Assembly (NCBI GenBank): GCA_963743145.1
Contig: CAVUOR010000002.1
Span: forward strand, 43,022 to 107,021
Direction: 5' to 3'
From: an uncultured Actinomycetota bacterium
GTDB taxonomy: Bacteria; Actinomycetota; Actinomycetes; Mycobacteriales; Mycobacteriaceae
Length of the DNA: 64,000 nt
Made by a program: the position numbers and the translations under genes. This document shows, in pieces, positions 29,495 to 43,156 of this stretch; the stretch's first letter is position 1, and every line of letters begins with the position of its first letter. Under the pieces are notes generated by a model. That model had not been told where the DNA came from. It saw only the letters and a list, made by a program, of their open reading frames with translations, and searched no databases.

Positions 29495-31126
29495 TCATGC
29501 CCCAAGAACCATCTCAAGTGCGCTCATCGAGGGCGAGAAAAAGTAGCCGCCTCCGGTGGCGACCACGAAGTCGGTCATGGTGACGACGGTGGCGGCGCTG
29601 GCGTCGTGGCCCAGCAGCGTGCAGGAGCGGGCCCGGCCCGCGCCGGGGCGGCCGTTTTGGCCAATAATCATGTCGAACCCGCTGGGACTGCGCGGCCGCT
29701 TGCCGTCGTTGGCCCAAGCCGAGCACAAAAACTCGAACTGGTCCTTTATCGAGGTTTGATAGCAGGCGAACTGCAGACCCCGATTGCCATTGACCGGGTC
29801 CTCGCCCACCGGATCCTCAAGGGCGGGGCCAAATGGGAGGGCGCGACGCAAGATTCGCCGGTCAAACGACGCGTGCCGCCCGCCCATGTCGTTGGCGGCC
29901 TCACGGGAGTTGACCTTGCGGATATGGGCCGCCAACGGGCAGGTGAACCCCACCGGGTCGGCTTTTGCCTCCGGCCAATCCCCCCGCCTCAACGCACCCG
30001 TAAGCGGCACCGATTTGGCGTCGGCGGCAAACCCGAAGTCGTTGTTGGCTAACCGATCAACCCCGAGCGCCTCGTCGTCGTGGTCAGGCAGTCGTGCCAG
30101 GGGGGCCCCACTTGGCCACCGGCCCACCATCCGCGACGCCAACCATTCAGCGGTGACCCCTGTGAACCCGGGGCTCCTCGACAGTTCCTCGGCGAAGGTT
30201 GTGGCAAAGCCCCAAAACGCGGCCACGTCCTGACGCAGCCGGCGGAAGGCGAGGTAGGAACCATTGCGGCTCCAATCGGGGCCGGGCGTCTTAATCGCAC
30301 CCGGGATCAGCGGATCCGCTGCCGCCCCGGGATAGCCGAATATGAACTCCCCCGGCCAAACCAAATATTGGCCCGGCAGGCCATACATCCAGGCCTCCGG
30401 GGTATGCGACGGGTCGATCACCCGTTGGGTGACAAAGCTGTCCGGATCGGCCGACAACCGGCCACGCACCCCCGGCTGAGATATTCCGTCCTGAAACCCG
30501 AAGTGCTCTTTGCCAATCGCGTCCCGCTTATGGCCCATCTCCTCGTAGAGCACGCTCGCCCCGGATTCAACCGCCCGGTCACGCACATCGTCGAGCAGGG
30601 CTCTGCCGCTCTCGTCGCGGTCTGCGCCGCAAATCAGCAGCACATCTGCCTCCCGACCCAGCCCACCGAACAGCCAACGGGCAGGATTGCCCTCCGCCGA
30701 CGGATCAGTCGGGTCGCCCAACAGCGCCGACCGTGTCGCCAGCCCGGCCTGAAAACTCGCGTCGGTGAACGCCGCCACATCAGCCGAATAGGCCTCACCG
30801 GCAAGCAGTTTGGTCAACCCCGCACGACTGAAAGCCACATTGAGCCAAACATCGTCAACACCCGGTGGCGGCGTGGCCAAGGCGGCAAGCCGGTTTGTGC
30901 CCAGGCCTCGATGCGCGCGGACCTTGACTCGCGAATCCATGCACTGGCCCAAGGTCGTGATCTTGGGCAGCAGAGCACGGATCCATTCCTTGGCGCTGCG
31001 GACATCACCGAGCGTCAAGGCCAGCACTCCTTGGTGCGGCTTGAAAAACCCGGGGATGATGTTGCCCTGAATCTCGTCTGTATCCAGGATCGGTTCTGCC
31101 GGTGCACCACGGCGCTGCTCGACCAT
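29495..31126 (-). CDS. Dyp-type heme peroxidase
   Basis: IQGNI, EHFGFQDGISQP (GxxDG), NGSYLAFRRLRQDV, AHIRKVN (proximal His), RILRR, GLQFACYQ..QFE. ATG overlaps the upstream TGA. Confidence 0.92.
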   Translation of the reverse strand: MVEQRRGAPAEPILDTDEIQGNIIPGFFKPHQGVLALTLGDVRSAKEWIRALLPKITTLGQCMDSRVKVRAHRGLGTNRLAALATPPPGVDDVWLNVAFSRAGLTKLLAGEAYSADVAAFTDASFQAGLATRSALLGDPTDPSAEGNPARWLFGGLGREADVLLICGADRDESGRALLDDVRDRAVESGASVLYEEMGHKRDAIGKEHFGFQDGISQPGVRGRLSADPDSFVTQRVIDPSHTPEAWMYGLPGQYLVWPGEFIFGYPGAAADPLIPGAIKTPGPDWSRNGSYLAFRRLRQDVAAFWGFATTFAEELSRSPGFTGVTAEWLASRMVGRWPSGAPLARLPDHDDEALGVDRLANNDFGFAADAKSVPLTGALRRGDWPEAKADPVGFTCPLAAHIRKVNSREAANDMGGRHASFDRRILRRALPFGPALEDPVGEDPVNGNRGLQFACYQTSIKDQFEFLCSAWANDGKRPRSPSGFDMIIGQNGRPGAGRARSCTLLGHDASAATVVTMTDFVVATGGGYFFSPSMSALEMVLGA

Positions 31127-32523
31127 CACCGACTCCGGTGTGGGGCACGCCGTGCCGGCCGATCCGGCGCAGTCGAAGTCGGCTGGACGGTCGCCGAAGA
31201 GGCGGCAACTGGGGAATTGTGCGGTACCGGACGGTCGAAGGCGGGCACTCTGCCGGGCGGGCAGGGCATGCCCAGGGGCTGAAAGTAAACAAACAACGGG
31301 TTGGCGGCATCGGCGCAGCAACCAGAATCGCACGGGGCCGGTGTGTTGGAATACTTATCGCGCTCAGAGGCTAGGCCCACAAGTTTCATCGTGATGTGCT
31401 CAGCCAAGTGGCCGCCCACGGTGATCGACTCACCTCCGATGGTGAGGTCACTGACCCGAAAGCCAAGTCGGTCAGGCACTTCGAAAACGGCCCGCTCAAT
31501 CAGCCCCGGGGAGCCGCGCAGGATCTGAAACCAGCCCGGATCGACGGGTTTGCCGTCCGGAGTTGCCCAGCCGGCGATGTTGAGGTTGTCGATATAAAGT
31601 CCGACAGGGTTGCGCAAGGTAATCGCGAAACCCATCGACGCGAGCTCGTTGACGCTGGCCCCGATCGTGGGATCACTGCACCGGTTGGCCCCGCCGTATT
31701 TTGCGCAGCAGATCAGCGCGTCCGGATCCGAAGTCCGAGGCCCGCCGGGGCCCTTCGGCGAACGCAAGATGGTGGCATCGGCCCCGAGCCTGATTTCCGC
31801 GCCGAGCGTGTTGGCCGGTTGGTTGAGGTGCATGATTCCGTCGACGGTGTTCCACCGGTTATACGGGTTGTACGTTCCCTTCGCATACACCACGGTCGGG
31901 GCGTCGGGATCGGAGTAGTCCACAAGGTCGACGGCACAGACGAGGTCTTCGCAACGCACCTGGGGACTCACATACTCCTGGTACAACTCAACCAGCAGAT
32001 CGGGATCTCCGACCGTGGGATAGGTGGGCACGCCGTCGATGCTCGGCAACGTGTCACCGTGCATCGCCTGCCAGTATTCGGGCGGCTCGGCGGTAAAAGT
32101 CACCCGCCGGATGCCGCCATCGGGATCTCGGGTGACCCGCCACTCGCAGTACTCGTCTTGAGGCCGGTAATAGAGGTCGTTCCACTGCCCGCCGACCTGG
32201 TAAGAGCCCGGACCGTCGATCCGCTGGGTGAGCGGGGTCAGCTGCTCAGCGATCGCCAGGGCCCTGGCGCGACCCCAGCGTTTGCGCAACGTCCCCGAAA
32301 AGGCGTTCCATACGATCTCCTGCTCGACGGTCGGCCCCACCGGCGGTGTCGTCAACTGGTTGTAGTACTGGCATGGCTGGCCGCGAAGCGCGCCGGCCTG
32401 CGCCGCGATGGATTCATCGAACCAACCCGACACTGCGTGGCTCCAGCGCGCCAGCTGCCCAGGAATCTTGTCGAAATCCGTCATATAGGCGGGAGGGTCG
32501 TACGCGGTCAGCATCGTCGACAT
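31126..32523 (-). CDS. Conserved-looking uncharacterised protein, translationally coupled to DyP
   Basis: Globular composition with QDEYCEW, FTAEPPEYW, YNPYNRWN, HLNQPANTLGAEI, LICCA..G..NRCSDP.IG; Cys-rich tail. Confidence 0.8.
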   Translation of the reverse strand: MSTMLTAYDPPAYMTDFDKIPGQLARWSHAVSGWFDESIAAQAGALRGQPCQYYNQLTTPPVGPTVEQEIVWNAFSGTLRKRWGRARALAIAEQLTPLTQRIDGPGSYQVGGQWNDLYYRPQDEYCEWRVTRDPDGGIRRVTFTAEPPEYWQAMHGDTLPSIDGVPTYPTVGDPDLLVELYQEYVSPQVRCEDLVCAVDLVDYSDPDAPTVVYAKGTYNPYNRWNTVDGIMHLNQPANTLGAEIRLGADATILRSPKGPGGPRTSDPDALICCAKYGGANRCSDPTIGASVNELASMGFAITLRNPVGLYIDNLNIAGWATPDGKPVDPGWFQILRGSPGLIERAVFEVPDRLGFRVSDLTIGGESITVGGHLAEHITMKLVGLASERDKYSNTPAPCDSGCCADAANPLFVYFQPLGMPCPPGRVPAFDRPVPHNSPVAASSATVQPTSTAPDRPARRAPHRSR

Positions 32524-32889
32524 CGCACCATCAAACCGCGACCCGTCCCGCACAGCCCGCGCGGTCTTTCCATGATTCTCCCGATCCACTGAACCGCGGT
32601 ATCAGCAGGTGTCAGCTTGCCAAAGAGGCTGCCCCTAAATGCGTGAAATCACTGGATCGTGTTGACTTTGTTGGCTCTTCGTAAATGAGAGTGCACCGGT
32701 GGCTGGCGGATATCCGCATGGTGGATTCGTGTGGCTGAGCTGAGGTGGGGCCTTGGTGGGTGACGATTCGGGTTCCTACACACTTCTCGTCGACATCACC
32801 GAGGTGACCCGTGCCTGAGGCTACCATTTGCTGTCGGCCACTTGGGCCTAGCGAGCAGCACCGCCACCACCATTCGTGGTCGGACAACG

Positions 32890-33873: not shown

Positions 33874-34116
33874 ATGAGAAACATCGTTCTAGCCGCCGCG
33901 TCTGTGGCGGCCGTGATGATCTCGCCGGCCGGGACAGCTGGCGCCGATCCGGCACCACCATCTGGACCCGGGTATCAAATCCCCGGCCCGGACGGCCCGA
34001 CGTTCCCAGGCACCCAAACTTATCCGCCCTGGTGCGCCCGAAACATGCTCGCGTGCGGGTTCCGGTACGACCCGGGCACCGGGACCTGGAACCCGAGCGG
34101 CTCAGGCGACGAATGA
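33874..34116 (+). CDS. Small secreted protein
   Basis: AAGGA RBS, signal peptide ending AGA-DP, Cys pair. Confidence 0.75.
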   Translation: MRNIVLAAASVAAVMISPAGTAGADPAPPSGPGYQIPGPDGPTFPGTQTYPPWCARNMLACGFRYDPGTGTWNPSGSGDE

Positions 34117-34215: not shown

Positions 34216-34725
34216 ATGTGGAATTTTCGCCGTGTTCTCGTCGCCCTTGTCGGAGTAATCACCTTGGCACTGTTGGCGCCTTGGGGCGCCCCGAAAGCCG
34301 TCGCCGACGGGGACCGGCTGGGGTGCAATACGTATTGCCAGAGCGCGGGCCAGTACGGCGCCGTCGGACAACCGCCGCCGTCGCCCGTCACGATCCTCTC
34401 CAGCGGAACCGTCACCGCCGACGCGGATGGCTATGTCCCGGTGACCTTGAAATGCAACGCGACAACGCAGTGCGTCGGCGCTCTCATGCTCGATTTGCAC
34501 GGATGGTCCAACCCGCAAGGAATGTCTTGGGTCAGCGGCAGATCGGATCTTGTCGTGAACGCGGGCGCGACGCGGACCATCGGTGTGCCGCTGGCGGCGG
34601 GGGCGATCGCCTTTTTGCGATCCCAGGGCCCGACCGCCCTCGACGTGACTGCAGACACCAACGCTACGCCCGGCGGCCCCTACCAGCTCGCCGGGGCCAC
34701 GCTGACGGTGGCAGCTCCGGGATGA
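34216..34725 (+). CDS. Secreted protein, paralog A
   Basis: GGAG RBS, signal peptide (AVA-DG), motifs LGCNTYCQSAG, DADGYVPVTLKCN, SDLVV.AGAT.TIGV. Confidence 0.75.
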   Translation: MWNFRRVLVALVGVITLALLAPWGAPKAVADGDRLGCNTYCQSAGQYGAVGQPPPSPVTILSSGTVTADADGYVPVTLKCNATTQCVGALMLDLHGWSNPQGMSWVSGRSDLVVNAGATRTIGVPLAAGAIAFLRSQGPTALDVTADTNATPGGPYQLAGATLTVAAPG

Positions 34726-34726
34726 G

Positions 34727-35407
34727 ATGAAGCTGCCGAGGTCCCGGCCCACCCGCCGCGATATGCTCGTCGCGGCAGCGCCCCGGCCAGCCCGGCCATC
34801 GATCACCACGGTGGCGGTTGGAGTGCTCACCGTCGGATTCTTGGCGTCGTGTGGAGGCCACACGATCACCGGCGCCCCCGTCGAGCACACCCCTCCGTCG
34901 CAGCCGGCCGGCGCAAGCGGCGAGGTCCGGCTCGGGTGTGGAACGTATTGCCAGAGCGCAGGCGCCATCAGCGGCACCGTGGGCCCAGGTCAGGCGGGGA
35001 TCAGGATTGTTTCCGACGGAACTATCACCCTCGACGCGGATGGCTATCTACCCGTGACCGTGACCTGCAATCTGCCGGTGCAGTGCCGGGGTTACCTGAG
35101 CGCCGTCAACACCGACGTCCAACCAAATAACATGGCCAAATCGGACCTTGTGGTGGACGCGGGCGCGACGGCGACGATCGGTGTCGGGTTGCCGGCCCAG
35201 TTAGTCGCCTACCTCCGAGCCCATCAACCGACCGGTGTTGAAGTGACCGCTGACATCGGCCCGTCGCTAGGGTTGGACTTCGAATGCACCCGCCACGATG
35301 GGGTTCCGCTTCCCGGGCTTCGCTGCCCGGGCCCCGACGAGTACGGTCCCTACGACGGGTTCAGTCTCCAGAGCGTCGCCAACCCGCTCGTGGTAGCTGC
35401 GGGATGA
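34727..35407 (+). CDS. Putative lipoprotein, paralog B
   Basis: Lipobox LASC; same motifs as paralog A (LGCGTYCQSAG, DADGYLPVTVTCN, SDLVV.AGAT.TIGV). Confidence 0.75.
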   Translation: MKLPRSRPTRRDMLVAAAPRPARPSITTVAVGVLTVGFLASCGGHTITGAPVEHTPPSQPAGASGEVRLGCGTYCQSAGAISGTVGPGQAGIRIVSDGTITLDADGYLPVTVTCNLPVQCRGYLSAVNTDVQPNNMAKSDLVVDAGATATIGVGLPAQLVAYLRAHQPTGVEVTADIGPSLGLDFECTRHDGVPLPGLRCPGPDEYGPYDGFSLQSVANPLVVAAG

Positions 35408-35408
35408 C

Positions 35409-37055
35409 GTGAAGCTGGCGAGGTCCCGGCTGACCCGCCGCGGCATGCTTGCCGCGACAGTTGCGGCCGTTATCACGGTTTTGGTGCTGGTCTTTTACAC
35501 ACTCGGGTTGTTGAACAACCTTGAGCGGCAAAGCGTCGACGAGCGGTTCTCGTGGCGGGGAACTCAATCGCCTGGCAGCCAGATCGTGATTGTCGCGATC
35601 GACCAGACAACGCTGCGGACACTGGCTATTCGGCCGCCGCTGCCCCGTTCTTACTACGCCCAAGTGCTTGACCGTGTGCGCGCGGGGTCACCACGGGTGA
35701 TCGGTGTGGACGCGCAGTTTATCGGGCGCTCCGATCCCGCCGACGACAATGCGCTGCTGGCCGCCATCGCCCGTGATGGACCGGTGTTGCTGGTCACCCA
35801 CGACGGGCCCCAGGGGCCGATCCCGGTGCCCGCCGACGTACCTGACGCGCCGGGAGCGGTCGTGGCGAGCGCGGCCATCGACACCGACCCCGATGGTGTG
35901 CTGCGCAAGATGATGTATGCGCCAATGCGCCAGGAGACATTCGCCGTCCGCGCCGCCGAAATGATCCGCAACCAACCGGTCAACCCCGCCGGCTTCCCCG
36001 GCAACTACGCCTGGATCGACTTCCGCGGGCCCCCAGGCACATTCCCGCACTAACTCATTCGCCGACGTCATGGCGCGCAAGATCACGGCGACCGCGTTTA
36101 CCGGCAAGACGGTGCTCATCGGTATTACCGATCCCGCAGCCGCAGCCCAAGACGAGGATTTGTTCGTGACGTCAATCTCATCGAATCCCATGCCCGGGGT
36201 CGAGGTCCAGGCCAACGCACTGTGGACCGTCCTTGCCGGCTTCCCTCTCAAATCAGCAGGCACACCGATAGATATCGCGCTCATCCTCGCCCTCATCGCG
36301 ATTCCCGCGACCATCGGGGCCCGCAAATCGGGCCTGGTCACGCTGGCCGGATCGATTGGGTTGCTCGTCATCTTCCTCGCCGGTGTGCAACTGGCCTTCA
36401 ATGCAGGCTGGATCGCGGCGGTCACTTACCCGGTCGTTGGTCTGGCCATCACCGCGGCCGGCATGGTCGGCGTGGACGCATACATAGAGCGGCGGCAACG
36501 CGCGGCGCTCGAACGCGCACTGGGCGACCTGCTGCCGCCGCAGTCGCCTCCTGCCTTCTTCATCAGCTACCGGCGCGATCAGAACACCTGGCAGGCCCGC
36601 GACATCCGGCGCGAACTCGCGCGGCGATACGGAGACACCAGCGTCTTCATGGACACCTCCTCGATCGAATACGGAGATTTTTCCCGAACAGATCGCCACC
36701 GCCATCAGAGGGTGCAGCCTGATGCTCGTGCTGATCGGACCACAATGGCTCGAACCCATCGCCGGCACTCGGCGGATCGACGACCCGAACGACTGGGTGC
36801 GCCACGAGATCGAAGCCGGCCTACAGCGTCGAGAAGCCGTCATCGTTTCCGGTACTTCTGGACGGAGCGCACGCCCCCACCGACGCCGAACTGCCCGAAT
36901 CCATTAAGGCTTTGGCCGCCCTACACGCAGTCGCCATCACCGGTGACGACCTCCCCGCCGACATCGACAACCTGCTGAGCTCCGTCGAACGCGGCCGGCG
37001 ACGAGCCGCAAAGTCCCACAGCGGTTCACCGACCACCGCCCCGCCTCAAAGATAG
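35409..37055 (+). CDS. CHASE2 sensor - transmembrane - TIR domain protein (indels near 36052, 36678, 36847)
   Basis: CHASE2 motifs IVIVAIDQ, IGVD, DPDGVLR, GKTVLIG, MPGVEVQAN; three TM helices; TIR FFISYRR..VFMD..LVLIGPQW..DWVRHEI..PVLLDG after frame repair. Confidence 0.8.
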
Positions 37056-39243: not shown

Positions 39244-40572
39244 TCACCCATCAGCGTGGGCTCCAGCTGGGCCAAGAGTCTTGCTGACAATTTGGGCGCT
39301 GCAATGATCTGGGTCCCTATTCACGCTGCGGCACCAGTTCAGCACACCGTCGGAGTCGGAGTACGTCGTCGGCACAACGGTGACCCAATAGTCGGGTTGA
39401 TCGTATGTTGTCCAGTCGCCTGACCACAGCAGTTTGGCGCCGTATTGCTGGCGGAGCTGCTGATGTTCCTGCAAGATCTGTGCGGGCTCGTACGTCACAT
39501 TGTCTTCTGGGTCGTAAGTCCACGGTTCCGTGCCGTGCTTGGAACTCAGTTGCGGGATCCACTGGCCGACGACTTGGGCGATAGCTGGAGCATCCCGTTC
39601 CTTGAATGCCTGCAGCTGCTGAACGGGATCGGGTGCGGGCGTGTCCGTAGCTGTAGGTGTGGAATCGGGCGTGTCCGTGATTGTGGGTGTGGAAGAAGTG
39701 GATTGACTGGACGGCCCAGTGGATCCGAGGACGACGCCGACCACGATGGCCACGACGGAGACCACGATGCCTGTGGCGAGCGCGATCTTCGTGCGGCGAC
39801 TCAACCGCTCAAAGAGGCGCGCCTTTTCAGTGGACGTATCCGTCGGTGACGCCGCAGCAGCCAGACGATCCCCTGTCGTGGTGGGGCCTGACTTTGGTGC
39901 ATCAGATTGTCCCGGCGTCGAGGCTATGTTGGCGGCGGCAAGCCTGTCTGCGCGAGACTCCTCGTCGGTGGTCGAAGAGTCCTCCCGCGTCGTCTGCTCG
40001 TTGGCGGCAGCGCTTTCTGGTGCAGGTATACCCTGCTCAATCCGGTGCTCGCCGCCGCGTGCGCCTGGCGGTGCCGTCGGGTCCGTGTCGGTACCCAGGC
40101 CGCTCTGCGGTGTCGTCACCGAGCCAGCGCTTGAGCCAACTGTTCCGCTTGCGACGAGGAAGCTCGTGACTGCCACAGCTAGACGCTCAACATGGGCCTC
40201 CAGCGGTGATGTCAACGCATCCAGCCAGTGCGGCGTCCCCAAGTAGTACTTCAGCGATTGTGTGGGAGCGACGTCCTCGATGCGGAACGGGATCAGTACG
40301 GCTTCCGCGTCTACGGCGAGCTGGACCTCTCGTCTGATCTGGGGAGAGGTGTTGGCGTGGCTGCTGAAGACAAGGACCATGACACGCGACGACTGGATCG
40401 CGTCGACGATGGCAGCGCCCCACTCCTGGCCAGGGATGACGTCTCGCGGCGCAACCCCGCACCGGATTCCCTTCGCTTCCAGGGTGGCGCAAACGGCATC
40501 GGCTTGGGGCTTGTCGTGGTGTGAGTAGCTGACAAAGACGTCGTGGGCCACGGGTCCACCCCCTTCGCTCAC
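39244..40572 (-). CDS. TIR domain - linker - TM - extracellular domain protein
   Basis: DVFVSYSHHD, APRDV.PG.EW, SPQIRREV, HWLDA; one TM; C-terminal WIPQLSSK..PDYWVT..WC..C domain. Confidence 0.85.
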   Translation of the reverse strand: MSEGGGPVAHDVFVSYSHHDKPQADAVCATLEAKGIRCGVAPRDVIPGQEWGAAIVDAIQSSRVMVLVFSSHANTSPQIRREVQLAVDAEAVLIPFRIEDVAPTQSLKYYLGTPHWLDALTSPLEAHVERLAVAVTSFLVASGTVGSSAGSVTTPQSGLGTDTDPTAPPGARGGEHRIEQGIPAPESAAANEQTTREDSSTTDEESRADRLAAANIASTPGQSDAPKSGPTTTGDRLAAAASPTDTSTEKARLFERLSRRTKIALATGIVVSVVAIVVGVVLGSTGPSSQSTSSTPTITDTPDSTPTATDTPAPDPVQQLQAFKERDAPAIAQVVGQWIPQLSSKHGTEPWTYDPEDNVTYEPAQILQEHQQLRQQYGAKLLWSGDWTTYDQPDYWVTVVPTTYSDSDGVLNWCRSVNRDPDHCSAQIVSKTLGPAGAHADG

Positions 40573-41594: not shown

Positions 41595-42707
41595 TTACGC
41601 GACCCCTAATGTCTCGACCAATCGATCACATGCCTCTCGAAGCCGTTTCGGATCGGCCTCCCGGCAGTCCTCATAGTTAAGTATCCGGAAATGCAGAGGC
41701 AGATCACAGGAGAGTGCGTAGATCGGAAAAAGCACTCCGCCACCACGATCACAGTCGAGCACCCGGGCCATGTTGTATTCGTCAAGGCAAACCTTCGACT
41801 CCCAGAAGCCCTCGGTCACGACGAGCACGACCTTGTTGCTGCTCTGAATTAGTTCGGCGATGCGCGGCTGCCAGTACGTGCCAACGTCAATGTCCACGAT
41901 GTCCACCAGCGTCCGCACCTTTGGTGCAACGGCGGAAATGTGCGAACAGATTTCGTCCACGGATGGGCGACCGTCAGCATGTGCGTAGCTGATGAACACC
42001 GACGGGTCGGGCTTGTTGCCCAATCTCGCTGGTGTGACATCCGTCGTCGCGGCATAATCGGCAGCAGAACCGGTTCTTTGAACGGTGCGGGCAAAGTCAT
42101 CAAAGGCGGTGATCGCGGGATCGTATGCGTCGCTGTAGTACACGACGATTCGCAGCCGATCCAACGGTAGACCGAACTCCATCCATCGTCCCGCAGCCGC
42201 CAAGATGGCCGTCAGCATTTCCTCGCGTGGCACACGCTGATTGCCGGAAGCGACAATTGGCATTACGACATCGCGGATCCCGGTATCCGGACCGACGAAC
42301 GGCACCAACGTTCGGAAGATGTCCCCGACGGTCGATGCCGCCGTCTGAGGCGTCGCAGGCTCGAAGCAAAGCAGGCGATCAAATCCGAACCTTCGTCCTG
42401 GTGGCATCTCGCGTGAAAGCCAGCAAGATGAGGTGGCCCGCAGATCGATCTCAGGGTCTGCGGCGAGTGCCGCCACGGACAGACCGCGATACGCCAACGC
42501 GCCAATGACAGACGGCGCGAACATGGTCAGTCGGCCTACATAGTCTGATTGATAGGCCGATACAACGAGCAAGTCGCATCCGTCACGCGGGGTCATCGCA
42601 GCGATATCCCCGACGCAAAGCTCGATACGCCCGCCACCTGGCAATGAGATTTCGCGGATCTTGTCCACACCTAACATTTTGCTTCTGGGGTGTTCGGTGG
42701 TCGCCAC
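41595..42707 (-). CDS. Macro-like N-terminal domain + C-terminal TIR domain protein
   Basis: IELCVGDI..DLLVVSA..MPIVASGNQ (macro-like); VFISYAHAD..ID.G.YW..I..S..FWESKVCLDEY (TIR). Confidence 0.8.
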   Translation of the reverse strand: MATTEHPRSKMLGVDKIREISLPGGGRIELCVGDIAAMTPRDGCDLLVVSAYQSDYVGRLTMFAPSVIGALAYRGLSVAALAADPEIDLRATSSCWLSREMPPGRRFGFDRLLCFEPATPQTAASTVGDIFRTLVPFVGPDTGIRDVVMPIVASGNQRVPREEMLTAILAAAGRWMEFGLPLDRLRIVVYYSDAYDPAITAFDDFARTVQRTGSAADYAATTDVTPARLGNKPDPSVFISYAHADGRPSVDEICSHISAVAPKVRTLVDIVDIDVGTYWQPRIAELIQSSNKVVLVVTEGFWESKVCLDEYNMARVLDCDRGGGVLFPIYALSCDLPLHFRILNYEDCREADPKRLREACDRLVETLGVA

Positions 42708-43124
42708 GGTGGATATCTCCCACGACCGAAGTCATCAAACGGTTGGTTCACCCGCGCCGTCAAAGCGGCGAAGGTACAGGCCATCACGCCGCACGATCTG
42801 CGGCACACCTGTGCGAGTCTCGCGGTCAGTGCCGGGGTGAATGTGCTCGCGCTGGCGCGAATGCTTGGACACAAAGACCCCAGCGTGACACTGCGGGTCT
42901 ACGCCGACCTATTCGACGACGATCTTGACGCCGTCGCGGTCACACTGCATACCCGTTACTCGCGCTCAAGTGTGGGCAAAGTGTGGGCACGTGCCGCCAG
43001 CGACGACCCGTCGCAGTCCAGCGAAAGCGGCACCACCAGTGCGAATACGCGAGATCTGTCGACTTCTGAGGAGTGCGGGCGGAGGGACTCGAACCCTCAC
43101 GCTCTTTCGAGCACCGGCACCTAA
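42700..43124 (+). pseudogene. Tyrosine integrase C-terminal remnant
   Basis: TPHDLRHT, MLGH and VYADLF catalytic motifs; N-terminal portion absent; abuts the tRNA att site. Confidence 0.88.
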
Positions 43125-43156
43125 AGCCGGCGCGTATTCCATTTCGCCACGCCCGC
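43074..43156 (-). tRNA. tRNA-Leu (anticodon TAG)
   Basis: GCGGGCG acceptor stem, CCGGC-TTTAGGT-GCCGG anticodon arm, long variable arm, GGTTCGAGTCC T-loop; CCA not encoded. Confidence 0.95.

Follow-up and report, generated by a model that had tools for sequence, protein, structure and literature searches.

What could two exported proteins and a broken membrane receptor, encoded by three abutting genes of an uncultured soil actinobacterium, be doing together? The genes lie within a stretch of 64,000 nucleotides (hereafter the window) on contig C2 of a 5.35-Mb genome that is 86% complete; the sequencing runs that contain window DNA are soil metagenomes, and the named homologs of the encoded proteins belong to Mycobacterium, which points to a soil mycobacterium. 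Genes A and B specify small exported proteins, and the third gene carries the pieces of a receptor with a CHASE2 sensor domain and a domain of the Toll/interleukin-1 receptor (TIR) type. From sequence comparisons and predicted structures, we estimate a probability of roughly 50% that the window holds a conserved module, recently broken in this copy, and that in this module a co-receptor exported from the cell and having an immunoglobulin (Ig)-like fold would act through a CHASE2 receptor whose SARM1-like TIR domain would cleave nicotinamide adenine dinucleotide (NAD+).

This module would place a SARM1-like TIR domain beneath a sensor that faces the outside of the cell and would pair it with an unnamed, fast-varying family of Ig-like proteins. 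To our knowledge, the TIR immune enzymes characterized in bacteria respond to triggers within the cell. The module bears on whether bacterial TIR immunity can be triggered at the surface, on the cues that CHASE2 domains detect (in this case likely a protein partner) and on the role of the bacterial relatives of the SARM1 TIR domain. No publication on a CHASE2-TIR fusion or on its partner was found in the literature searched, outside of which fell most subscription journals and supplements. The word ‘CHASE’ is absent from the main text of a systematic Thoeris preprint, whose TIR lists may hold the fusion (10.64898/2025.12.03.692087), as may the architecture tables of an eLife paper. One database source already annotates a member as ‘CHASE2 domain/TIR domain’, and the fusion is therefore already visible in databases.

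Intact receptors and their linkage to an exported partner

A preliminary description of this DNA had proposed a CHASE2-TIR receptor from an interrupted reading frame, and intact versions of such a protein do occur elsewhere. Both CHASE2 and TIR_2 are present in 119 of the best 120 of 325 receptor matches, and intact proteins that combine CHASE2, four transmembrane (TM) helices and TIR are frequent in soil data. The same genome carries an intact paralog of 541 amino acids on contig C7, which shares 79% DNA identity with the window copy and exceeds the Pfam cut-offs for both domains (CHASE2, E 2.5e-46, 158.8 bits versus a cut-off of 26.3, residues 30-299; TIR_2, E 1.1e-12). The preliminary description counted three TM helices, but four are evident in this paralog from hydropathy peaks (residues 13-31, 282-300, 308-326 and 331-349) and from the helices of a structural model with a predicted local distance difference test (pLDDT) score of 87. 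Since one helix precedes CHASE2 and three follow it, the TIR domain is predicted by parity to be cytoplasmic.

All 19 of the 19 sequence matches of the TIR domain in the Protein Data Bank (PDB) are to SARM1 or TIR-1 (E about 1e-12). The structural match to these proteins is likewise the closest, with Z values of 15.4-17.4 at a root-mean-square deviation (rmsd) of about 2 Å, versus Z values no greater than 12.3 for other TIR domains (plant, IL-1R, MyD88 and Thoeris). A structure search with the whole-chain receptor model listed no match to a CHASE2 fold, as TIR matches filled the list. Residues F380, Y383, R384, R385, W459 and E463, as well as the FFxSYRR motif, occur in every one of the 98 aligned receptors, which were picked from the top matches at 52% identity or more, and the FISYRR segment, an Asp and a Gly in the BB-loop region, and the WVxxE segment align with SARM1. 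The enzymatic output first proposed for the receptor thus finds agreement in the retention of SARM1-type active-site residues, and we consider it probable that the TIR domain cleaves NAD+.

The resemblance to SARM1 and TIR-1, which share the catalytic Glu and the FISYRR pocket with the receptor, does not extend to the rest of the protein. There are no ARM or SAM domains, and by these features the receptor is not a SARM1 ortholog. SARM1 is controlled by binding of nicotinamide mononucleotide (NMN) or NAD+ inside the cell, whereas control here would be exerted from outside by a membrane sensor. The TIR domain of SARM1 itself is reported to branch within a mainly bacterial clade (PMC13142454).

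Similarly, the name ‘Toll-like receptor’ used in the preliminary description holds as an analogy of layout. As in Toll and IL-1 receptors, a sensor outside is joined through the membrane to a TIR domain inside, and Ig folds are expected outside as in IL-1R. Toll-like receptors also use accessory soluble proteins such as MD-2 and CD14, which the partner brings to mind. The name fails in other respects: no leucine-rich repeats are present (Pfam places CHASE2 at residues 30-299), there are four helices rather than one, and the TIR domain is of the enzymatic type, nearer to SARM1 than to the adaptor-binding TIR domains of IL-1R, MyD88 and Toll-like receptors (Z 15-17 versus 8-12). Unlike in IL-1 receptors, the Ig-like fold is predicted on a separate chain. 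The module shares with Thoeris and other TIR defence systems a TIR_2 domain with the catalytic Glu, a patchy and mobile distribution, and an occasional location in islands with SLOG, patatin, STAND or TIR genes. Unlike Thoeris, it has its sensor outside the membrane and lacks a conserved effector gene, with SLOG, patatin and RyR occurring only in single loci or a minority of them, and Thoeris profiles score far below cut-off (NCBIfam ThcB4, 37.9 bits versus 220; PADLOC ThsB, 22.9 bits over 67 residues). Judged by the features that define these groups in sequence, the module is not a Toll-like receptor, an IL-1 receptor or a member of Thoeris.

The ectodomain and the helix layout are those of the CHASE2 receptor class, whereas TIR is not among its described outputs (cyclase, kinase, GGDEF, HD-GYP and caspase, the last as given in PMC8195603). 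Because the nearest sensor halves that lack TIR belong to CHASE2 cyclases and to an HD-GYP protein of other Actinomycetota, a swap of output domains is the likely origin of the fusion. One receptor (P0234) carries an additional FHA domain at its C terminus, which may indicate a connection with Ser/Thr kinase signalling.

How firmly is this receptor tied to an exported protein? Among 80 genome loci, 26 match the receptor over CHASE2 and TIR or leave the contig after CHASE2, and the other 54 are partial matches to CHASE2 only or to TIR only. A partner gene lies within about 1 kb of the receptor in 23 of the 25 testable loci (one receptor locus starts 270 bases from a contig end), compared with none of the 54 partial-match controls, and the association with exported LGCxTYCQSAG proteins suspected from the window is thereby extended to many other loci. 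The linked loci derive from mycobacteria, Solirubrobacterales, Thermoleophilaceae and Actinoplanes, and linkage is kept where gene order and strand are altered (L034, L039 and L040). The partner is absent beside L036, whose receptor is broken, and beside L037, whose receptor is intact. In 399 other genomes of the genus, the full receptor was found in 8 and the partner in 11, with the partner adjacent in 8 of the 8 receptor genomes; the chance expectation for this overlap is about 0.2, and the partner is frameshifted or truncated in all 3 partner-only genomes. No further full-length receptor turned up in 400 genomes drawn from across the phylum. Of 22 metagenome loci found through the partner, 12 have an adjacent CHASE2 gene and most of the others end within 600 bases, with L099 and L113 as clear solo partners. 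In our estimation, the two proteins very probably act together.

The same data speak to the idea that receptor and partner are merely co-transferred, as a decaying family of cargo genes that have no joint function. The dead receptor of the window agrees with this idea, as do the recurring broken copies of either gene, some of which are perhaps assembly errors. We nevertheless regard it as very improbable, as evident by linkage that extends across orders and through the rearrangements noted above, by the lack of any other conserved neighbour, and by a mean ratio of nonsynonymous to synonymous substitution rates (dN/dS) of 0.25 for intact receptors.

The window copy of the module

The features of the window locus are as follows.

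33874..34116, + strand: small exported protein gene (80 amino acids), found together with A in at least one further copy (contig C13)
34216..34725, + strand: gene A (169 amino acids), ATG after GGAG, exported protein with Ig-like core
34708..34778, + strand: junction repeat copy 1, the end of A followed by a receptor 5′ stub, with the in-frame start of B
34727..35407, + strand: gene B (226 amino acids from the first ATG), paralog of A
35390..35460, + strand: junction repeat copy 2, the end of B plus the true start of the receptor gene
35409-37055, + strand: receptor gene, broken, with CHASE2 and TIR pieces
35409..36053, + strand: receptor piece 1, the TM helix at the N terminus, then CHASE2 profile positions 2-143, with TAA at break 1
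36054..36673, + strand: receptor piece 2, the remaining CHASE2, three TM helices and the start of TIR, up to break 2
36674..36846, + strand: receptor piece 3, the central part of TIR, including WVRHE (Glu codon at 36806-36808), up to break 3
36847..37055, + strand: receptor piece 4, the TIR C terminus and stop codon

As first described, genes A, B and the receptor gene lie on the same strand with 1-bp gaps (positions 34726 and 35408), and A and B are indeed paralogs with C-x3-C and C-x5-C pairs (41% identity over 162 amino acids, E 7e-35). The two receptor domains were also recognized correctly, as Pfam reports CHASE2 on both N-terminal pieces (E 6.5e-25 and 1.7e-08; 88.6 and 34.8 bits) and, weakly, TIR_2 on two TIR pieces; the FFISYRR motif (36556-36576) lies in piece 2 and the codon for the catalytic-position Glu in piece 3. 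The nature of the interruptions needs revision. In place of three single-base indels, comparison with nine intact relatives reveals frame breaks of +1 near 36052, -2 near 36673 and +1 near 36846, and an additional in-frame insertion of 12 nucleotides near 36137. The TAA at break 1 closes piece 1.

The preliminary description treated these breaks as sequencing errors to be repaired, but contigs from other runs span each of them with 0 gaps: break 1 in X2, X3 and X6 (one study), break 2 in X3 and X4 (two studies), and break 3 in X1, X2, X3, X5 and X6 (two studies). This comparison covered seven of the eight listed runs; one bridging run may be the source of the window assembly, and the single study behind break 1 may include the source sample. 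Truncated receptor products of 214 and 302/270 amino acids have also been recorded on contigs of 635,932 and 54,461 bases, and dN/dS between the window receptor and intact relatives (0.20-0.29) resembles the mean of 36 intact pairs (0.25). Because the breaks are bridged in other runs, truncated products are on record and dN/dS is like that of intact pairs, the window receptor is a real and recent pseudogene. Assembly error is excluded as the cause of the breaks by the contigs that cross them and by the recorded products. Programmed frameshifting finds no support, as piece 1 stops at break 1 and the relatives read through continuously. Genes A and B may still act in trans despite the loss of their own receptor. 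The two-gene unit is small and can be cloned intact from relatives, whereas the window copy, being a pseudogene, is unusable as a test object.

Gene A encodes a signal peptide with an A-x-A cleavage motif (by eye), followed by the conserved motif GDRLGCxTYCQxAG. Gene B has the same motif and Ig-like core behind a lipobox (LAS-C, by eye), and its second loop is longer and contains an extra Cys pair; shorter versions of 194 and 214 amino acids are on record, as is a relative with 98% identity. The two junction repeats are 71 nucleotides long and 83% identical to each other. The A|B junction is the same kind of receptor 5′ stub as terminates solo partner genes elsewhere, and A is therefore a solo-type cassette placed ahead of a B-receptor module. 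The two exported genes that were first taken as the layout are consequently not the rule, since a single partner is usual and B stands behind a duplicated junction. Tandem sets of two or three partners occur in L109, L111 and L032 without a junction repeat. The match to contig C13 (89%) extends from the 80-amino-acid gene through the spacer into the first part of A.

At the locus of the intact C7 receptor, the partner ahead of it is frameshifted near its 3′ end (L013:9931-10483, - strand). This frameshift is unique to this assembly, relatives of 91-95% identity being whole, and it could be an error. With a broken partner and an intact receptor, the C7 locus is the mirror image of the window locus.

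A variable partner family and what it may do

The partner family is absent from the profile collections consulted: 113 members gave no Pfam match (best E 0.014; Big_2 in 4 members at E of 0.03 or higher), four close members gave none in NCBIfam, and A and B gave none in PADLOC. A structural model (pLDDT 84) consists of a signal helix, a short motif with Cys37 and Cys41, and a beta-sandwich with matches of the Ig or fibronectin type III (FnIII) kind (best Z 7.6, rmsd 2.7 Å, 95 residues). For gene A, the predicted sandwich contains a second Cys pair and two hypervariable loops (approximately residues 95-106 and 148-157). Across the family, the N-terminal CxxxC motif is the most conserved region (entropy 0.55 bits) and the two loops are the least conserved (2.7 bits); the loops differ in length and often gain Cys pairs. 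The family comprises 266 clusters at 50% identity. None of 69 pattern matches in viral contigs was confirmed as a member, and none was found in the plasmids searched. A query of the ESM Atlas with P0056 returned only Actinomycetota clusters without names (best 0.84), which we treat as a lead only.

In 15 paired loci, mean identity is 50% for the partner versus 71% for CHASE2 and 71% for TIR. Partner identity correlates with CHASE2 identity (Spearman 0.40, permutation 0.01) but correlates better with TIR identity (0.53), and the correlation therefore reflects shared ancestry. These values are pertinent to the view that the exported protein is itself the ligand, a secreted signal of kinship or density that marks strain identity, with the TIR domain adjusting physiology or killing on mismatch. 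This view can claim the partner-CHASE2 correlation and the fact that most members carry a cleavable signal peptide, as evident by an A-x-A motif in 111 of 120 close members versus a lipobox pattern in 3. We consider it decidedly unlikely, because CHASE2 does not vary more than TIR, because the partner tracks TIR better, and because a single genome combines eight diverse partners with one intact receptor.

That genome holds eight near-complete partner genes and a fragment; besides A and B of the window and the C7 locus, there are five more solo genes. Solo copies (C13, C18, L099, L102, L113 and the second copy of L020) end in 30-55 nucleotides of the receptor 5′ end, and therefore the receptor was lost and the partner retained. 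This arrangement would suit a guard or brake, wherein the exported protein restrains the receptor and its loss, cleavage or capture releases TIR activity. Triggers would then be envelope damage, a protease or an invader, and solo copies would be spare brakes comparable to orphan immunity genes. Also in keeping with a brake, the receptor is almost never found without a partner while solo partners are common, and Sinorhizobium meliloti CyaD1 lacking CHASE2 makes cAMP constitutively, as stated in PMC5498481. Restraint of this type is nonetheless unlikely in our estimation: it requires neither hypervariable loops nor fused binding-type domains, L037 has no neighbouring partner, and the C7 receptor is intact beside a broken partner, although solo copies could cover for the latter.

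The loops also appear to be exchanged among family members. Gene A is a mosaic in a four-sequence alignment inspected by eye, its 5′ half resembling the C13 paralog and its 3′ half, including the loops, resembling C6, which suggests recombination. Additional domains are carried by the partners in L027, L107, L108, L110 and L115 and share 45% identity (E 2e-33) with the outside domain that a second TIR-TM protein of the window (39244-40572) bears, and in L027, L107, L108 and L110 the fused partner is directly upstream of CHASE2. More distant members occur in tandem or fused to beta-propellers or CAP domains. A word search among longer proteins found no fusion; fusions did emerge from the loci and from the full HMMER scan.

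Precedent for an accessory protein comes from S. meliloti, where CHASE2 adenylate/guanylate cyclases (CyaD1, CyaD2 and CyaK) with the same TM-CHASE2-3TM sensor rely on the accessory envelope protein NsrA to sense a plant protein, according to PMC13001267. The output here is TIR rather than cyclase, and the partner is a small Ig-like exported protein that is multiplied and variable, whereas NsrA is a beta-barrel. We lean towards the view that the partner binds the receptor. A prediction of the complex between the CHASE2 ectodomain and partner A scored 0.00 and was counted neither for nor against binding.

In the co-receptor mechanism that we favour, the layout apparent from sequence, with one TM helix, CHASE2, three TM helices and TIR, places the TIR domain inside the cell by helix parity, and the partner encoded by the abutting gene is exported. 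The Cys motif and framework of the partner would dock on CHASE2, leaving its two variable loops, or fused domains, to bind a macromolecule outside, perhaps a protein or glycan borne by a phage, predator or competitor. Binding would cluster receptors, whose TIR domains would self-associate and hydrolyse NAD+ by analogy with SARM1 and other enzymatic TIRs. The outcome would be NAD+ loss with growth arrest, or an ADP-ribose-type signal for unlinked effectors, and the extra solo partners may widen the range sensed by the single intact C7 receptor. A bolder version, which we view as doubtful, credits Actinomycetota with an innate immune receptor at the cell surface whose repertoire would diversify in the manner of antibodies: a constant tag stapled by Cys residues and an Ig framework would fit one CHASE2-TIR receptor, recombining loops or swapped domains would set recognition, and the SARM1-like NADase would fire before or at invasion.

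Several observations weigh against the co-receptor mechanism. The Ig-like match of the partner is generic (best Z as above), variable surface loops can drift without selection, and the propeller and CAP fusions may lie away from any receptor. A catalytic Glu is no guarantee of activity in a TIR domain, as noted in PMC7075850. The intact receptor of L037 has no family gene within 6 kb, and the partner of the C7 receptor is frameshifted in this assembly. Many loci derive from related metagenome-assembled genomes, such that the counts are not independent and overstate independence. When 335 open reading frames from 33 loci were clustered, no third gene was generally conserved besides receptor and partner. 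Finally, among 106 of the 214 proteins listed near receptors (partners and three near-duplicate loci excluded), most are of ordinary types, with conflict-type genes in a minority of loci.

Neighbouring genes and possible role

Within that minority, TrkA_N-RyR proteins occur in L024, L026, L028 and L032, SLOG (LSDAT) in L028, patatin in L033 and WD40/STAND proteins in L024 and L026, and in one genome (G268) patatin, RyR and two TIR genes adjoin the module. RyR matches are widespread (136 of 400 genomes, one to four per genome), and their presence therefore reflects enrichment within islands rather than a fixed partner. In the window genome, 4 of 7 partner loci lie within 12 kb of another TIR gene versus 0.38 at random, with the fragment excluded and a null that ignores island clustering. 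This genome has 15 TIR_2 matches over cut-off and 3 RyR matches, whereas only 4 of 14 control genomes had any; it is unusually rich in TIR next to the controls. From such gene content a conflict role is plausible, and we tentatively put a role in defence or conflict at slightly below even chances.

The neighbourhoods might equally be interpreted as those of an ordinary environmental signalling system, in which the TIR domain would serve as a scaffold, or as a weak enzyme, and relay a non-lethal cue from the envelope to further TIR proteins, without a role in conflict. Possible recipients exist among the 15 TIR_2 proteins of the genome, the closest relatives lacking TIR are HD-GYP proteins and CHASE2 adenylate cyclases, the majority of neighbourhoods do not qualify as defence islands, and PADLOC and NCBIfam Thoeris matches fall far under cut-off. 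We find such signalling quite unlikely in view of the patchy spread (8 of 399 genus genomes and 0 of 400 others in the phylum draw), the frequent breakage, the rapid diversification of partners, and the TIR, STAND, SLOG, patatin and TrkA_N-RyR genes near several loci, which fit conflict genes.

Two islands (L166:9747-18912, in G268, and L028:1635-10583) embed the module amid patatin, RyR, TrkA_N-RyR membrane proteins, SLOG (LSDAT) and TIR genes, and it is possible that effectors in them are gated by ADP-ribose. A contig in a bin labelled Chloroflexia (L036/L169) has island genes almost identical to those of a mycobacterial genome, and L036 bears a broken receptor of the mycobacterial type, either by mis-binning or by transfer.

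In the window, the module genes sit in a stretch bounded by an integrase remnant and tRNA-Leu, with two further TIR genes inside. The remnant, the C-terminal part of a tyrosine recombinase (42690-43156), overlaps tRNA-Leu(TAG) and likely marks the end of an integrated island. One of the TIR genes (39244-40572, - strand) encodes a second surface-type TIR protein (TIR_2, E 2.9e-21) with a TM helix and an outside domain of 125 amino acids, which is also found as a fusion with certain partners and in three further proteins encoded by the genome, one of them a kinase that ends in it. The other (41595-42707, - strand) encodes a 370-amino-acid protein with a C-terminal TIR_2 domain. Its N-terminal domain resembles a macrodomain by eye but has no Pfam or PDB sequence match, and the protein is a candidate ADP-ribose reader. 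A Dyp-type peroxidase (612 amino acids) stands behind a 487-amino-acid protein with no Pfam, NCBIfam or PADLOC match (29495-32589, - strand). A promoter scan found no sigma-70-like sites and terminators at no more than chance level, and the listed runs with window DNA include no RNA dataset.

CHASE2 cyclase or HD-GYP genes at three loci (L042:3590-5977, L043:3205-5385 and L178:2615-3970) adjoin genes for exported proteins with a common C-terminal beta-rich domain, which by eye resembles FecR, Pfam giving no call. These exported proteins are possibly a parallel kind of partner.

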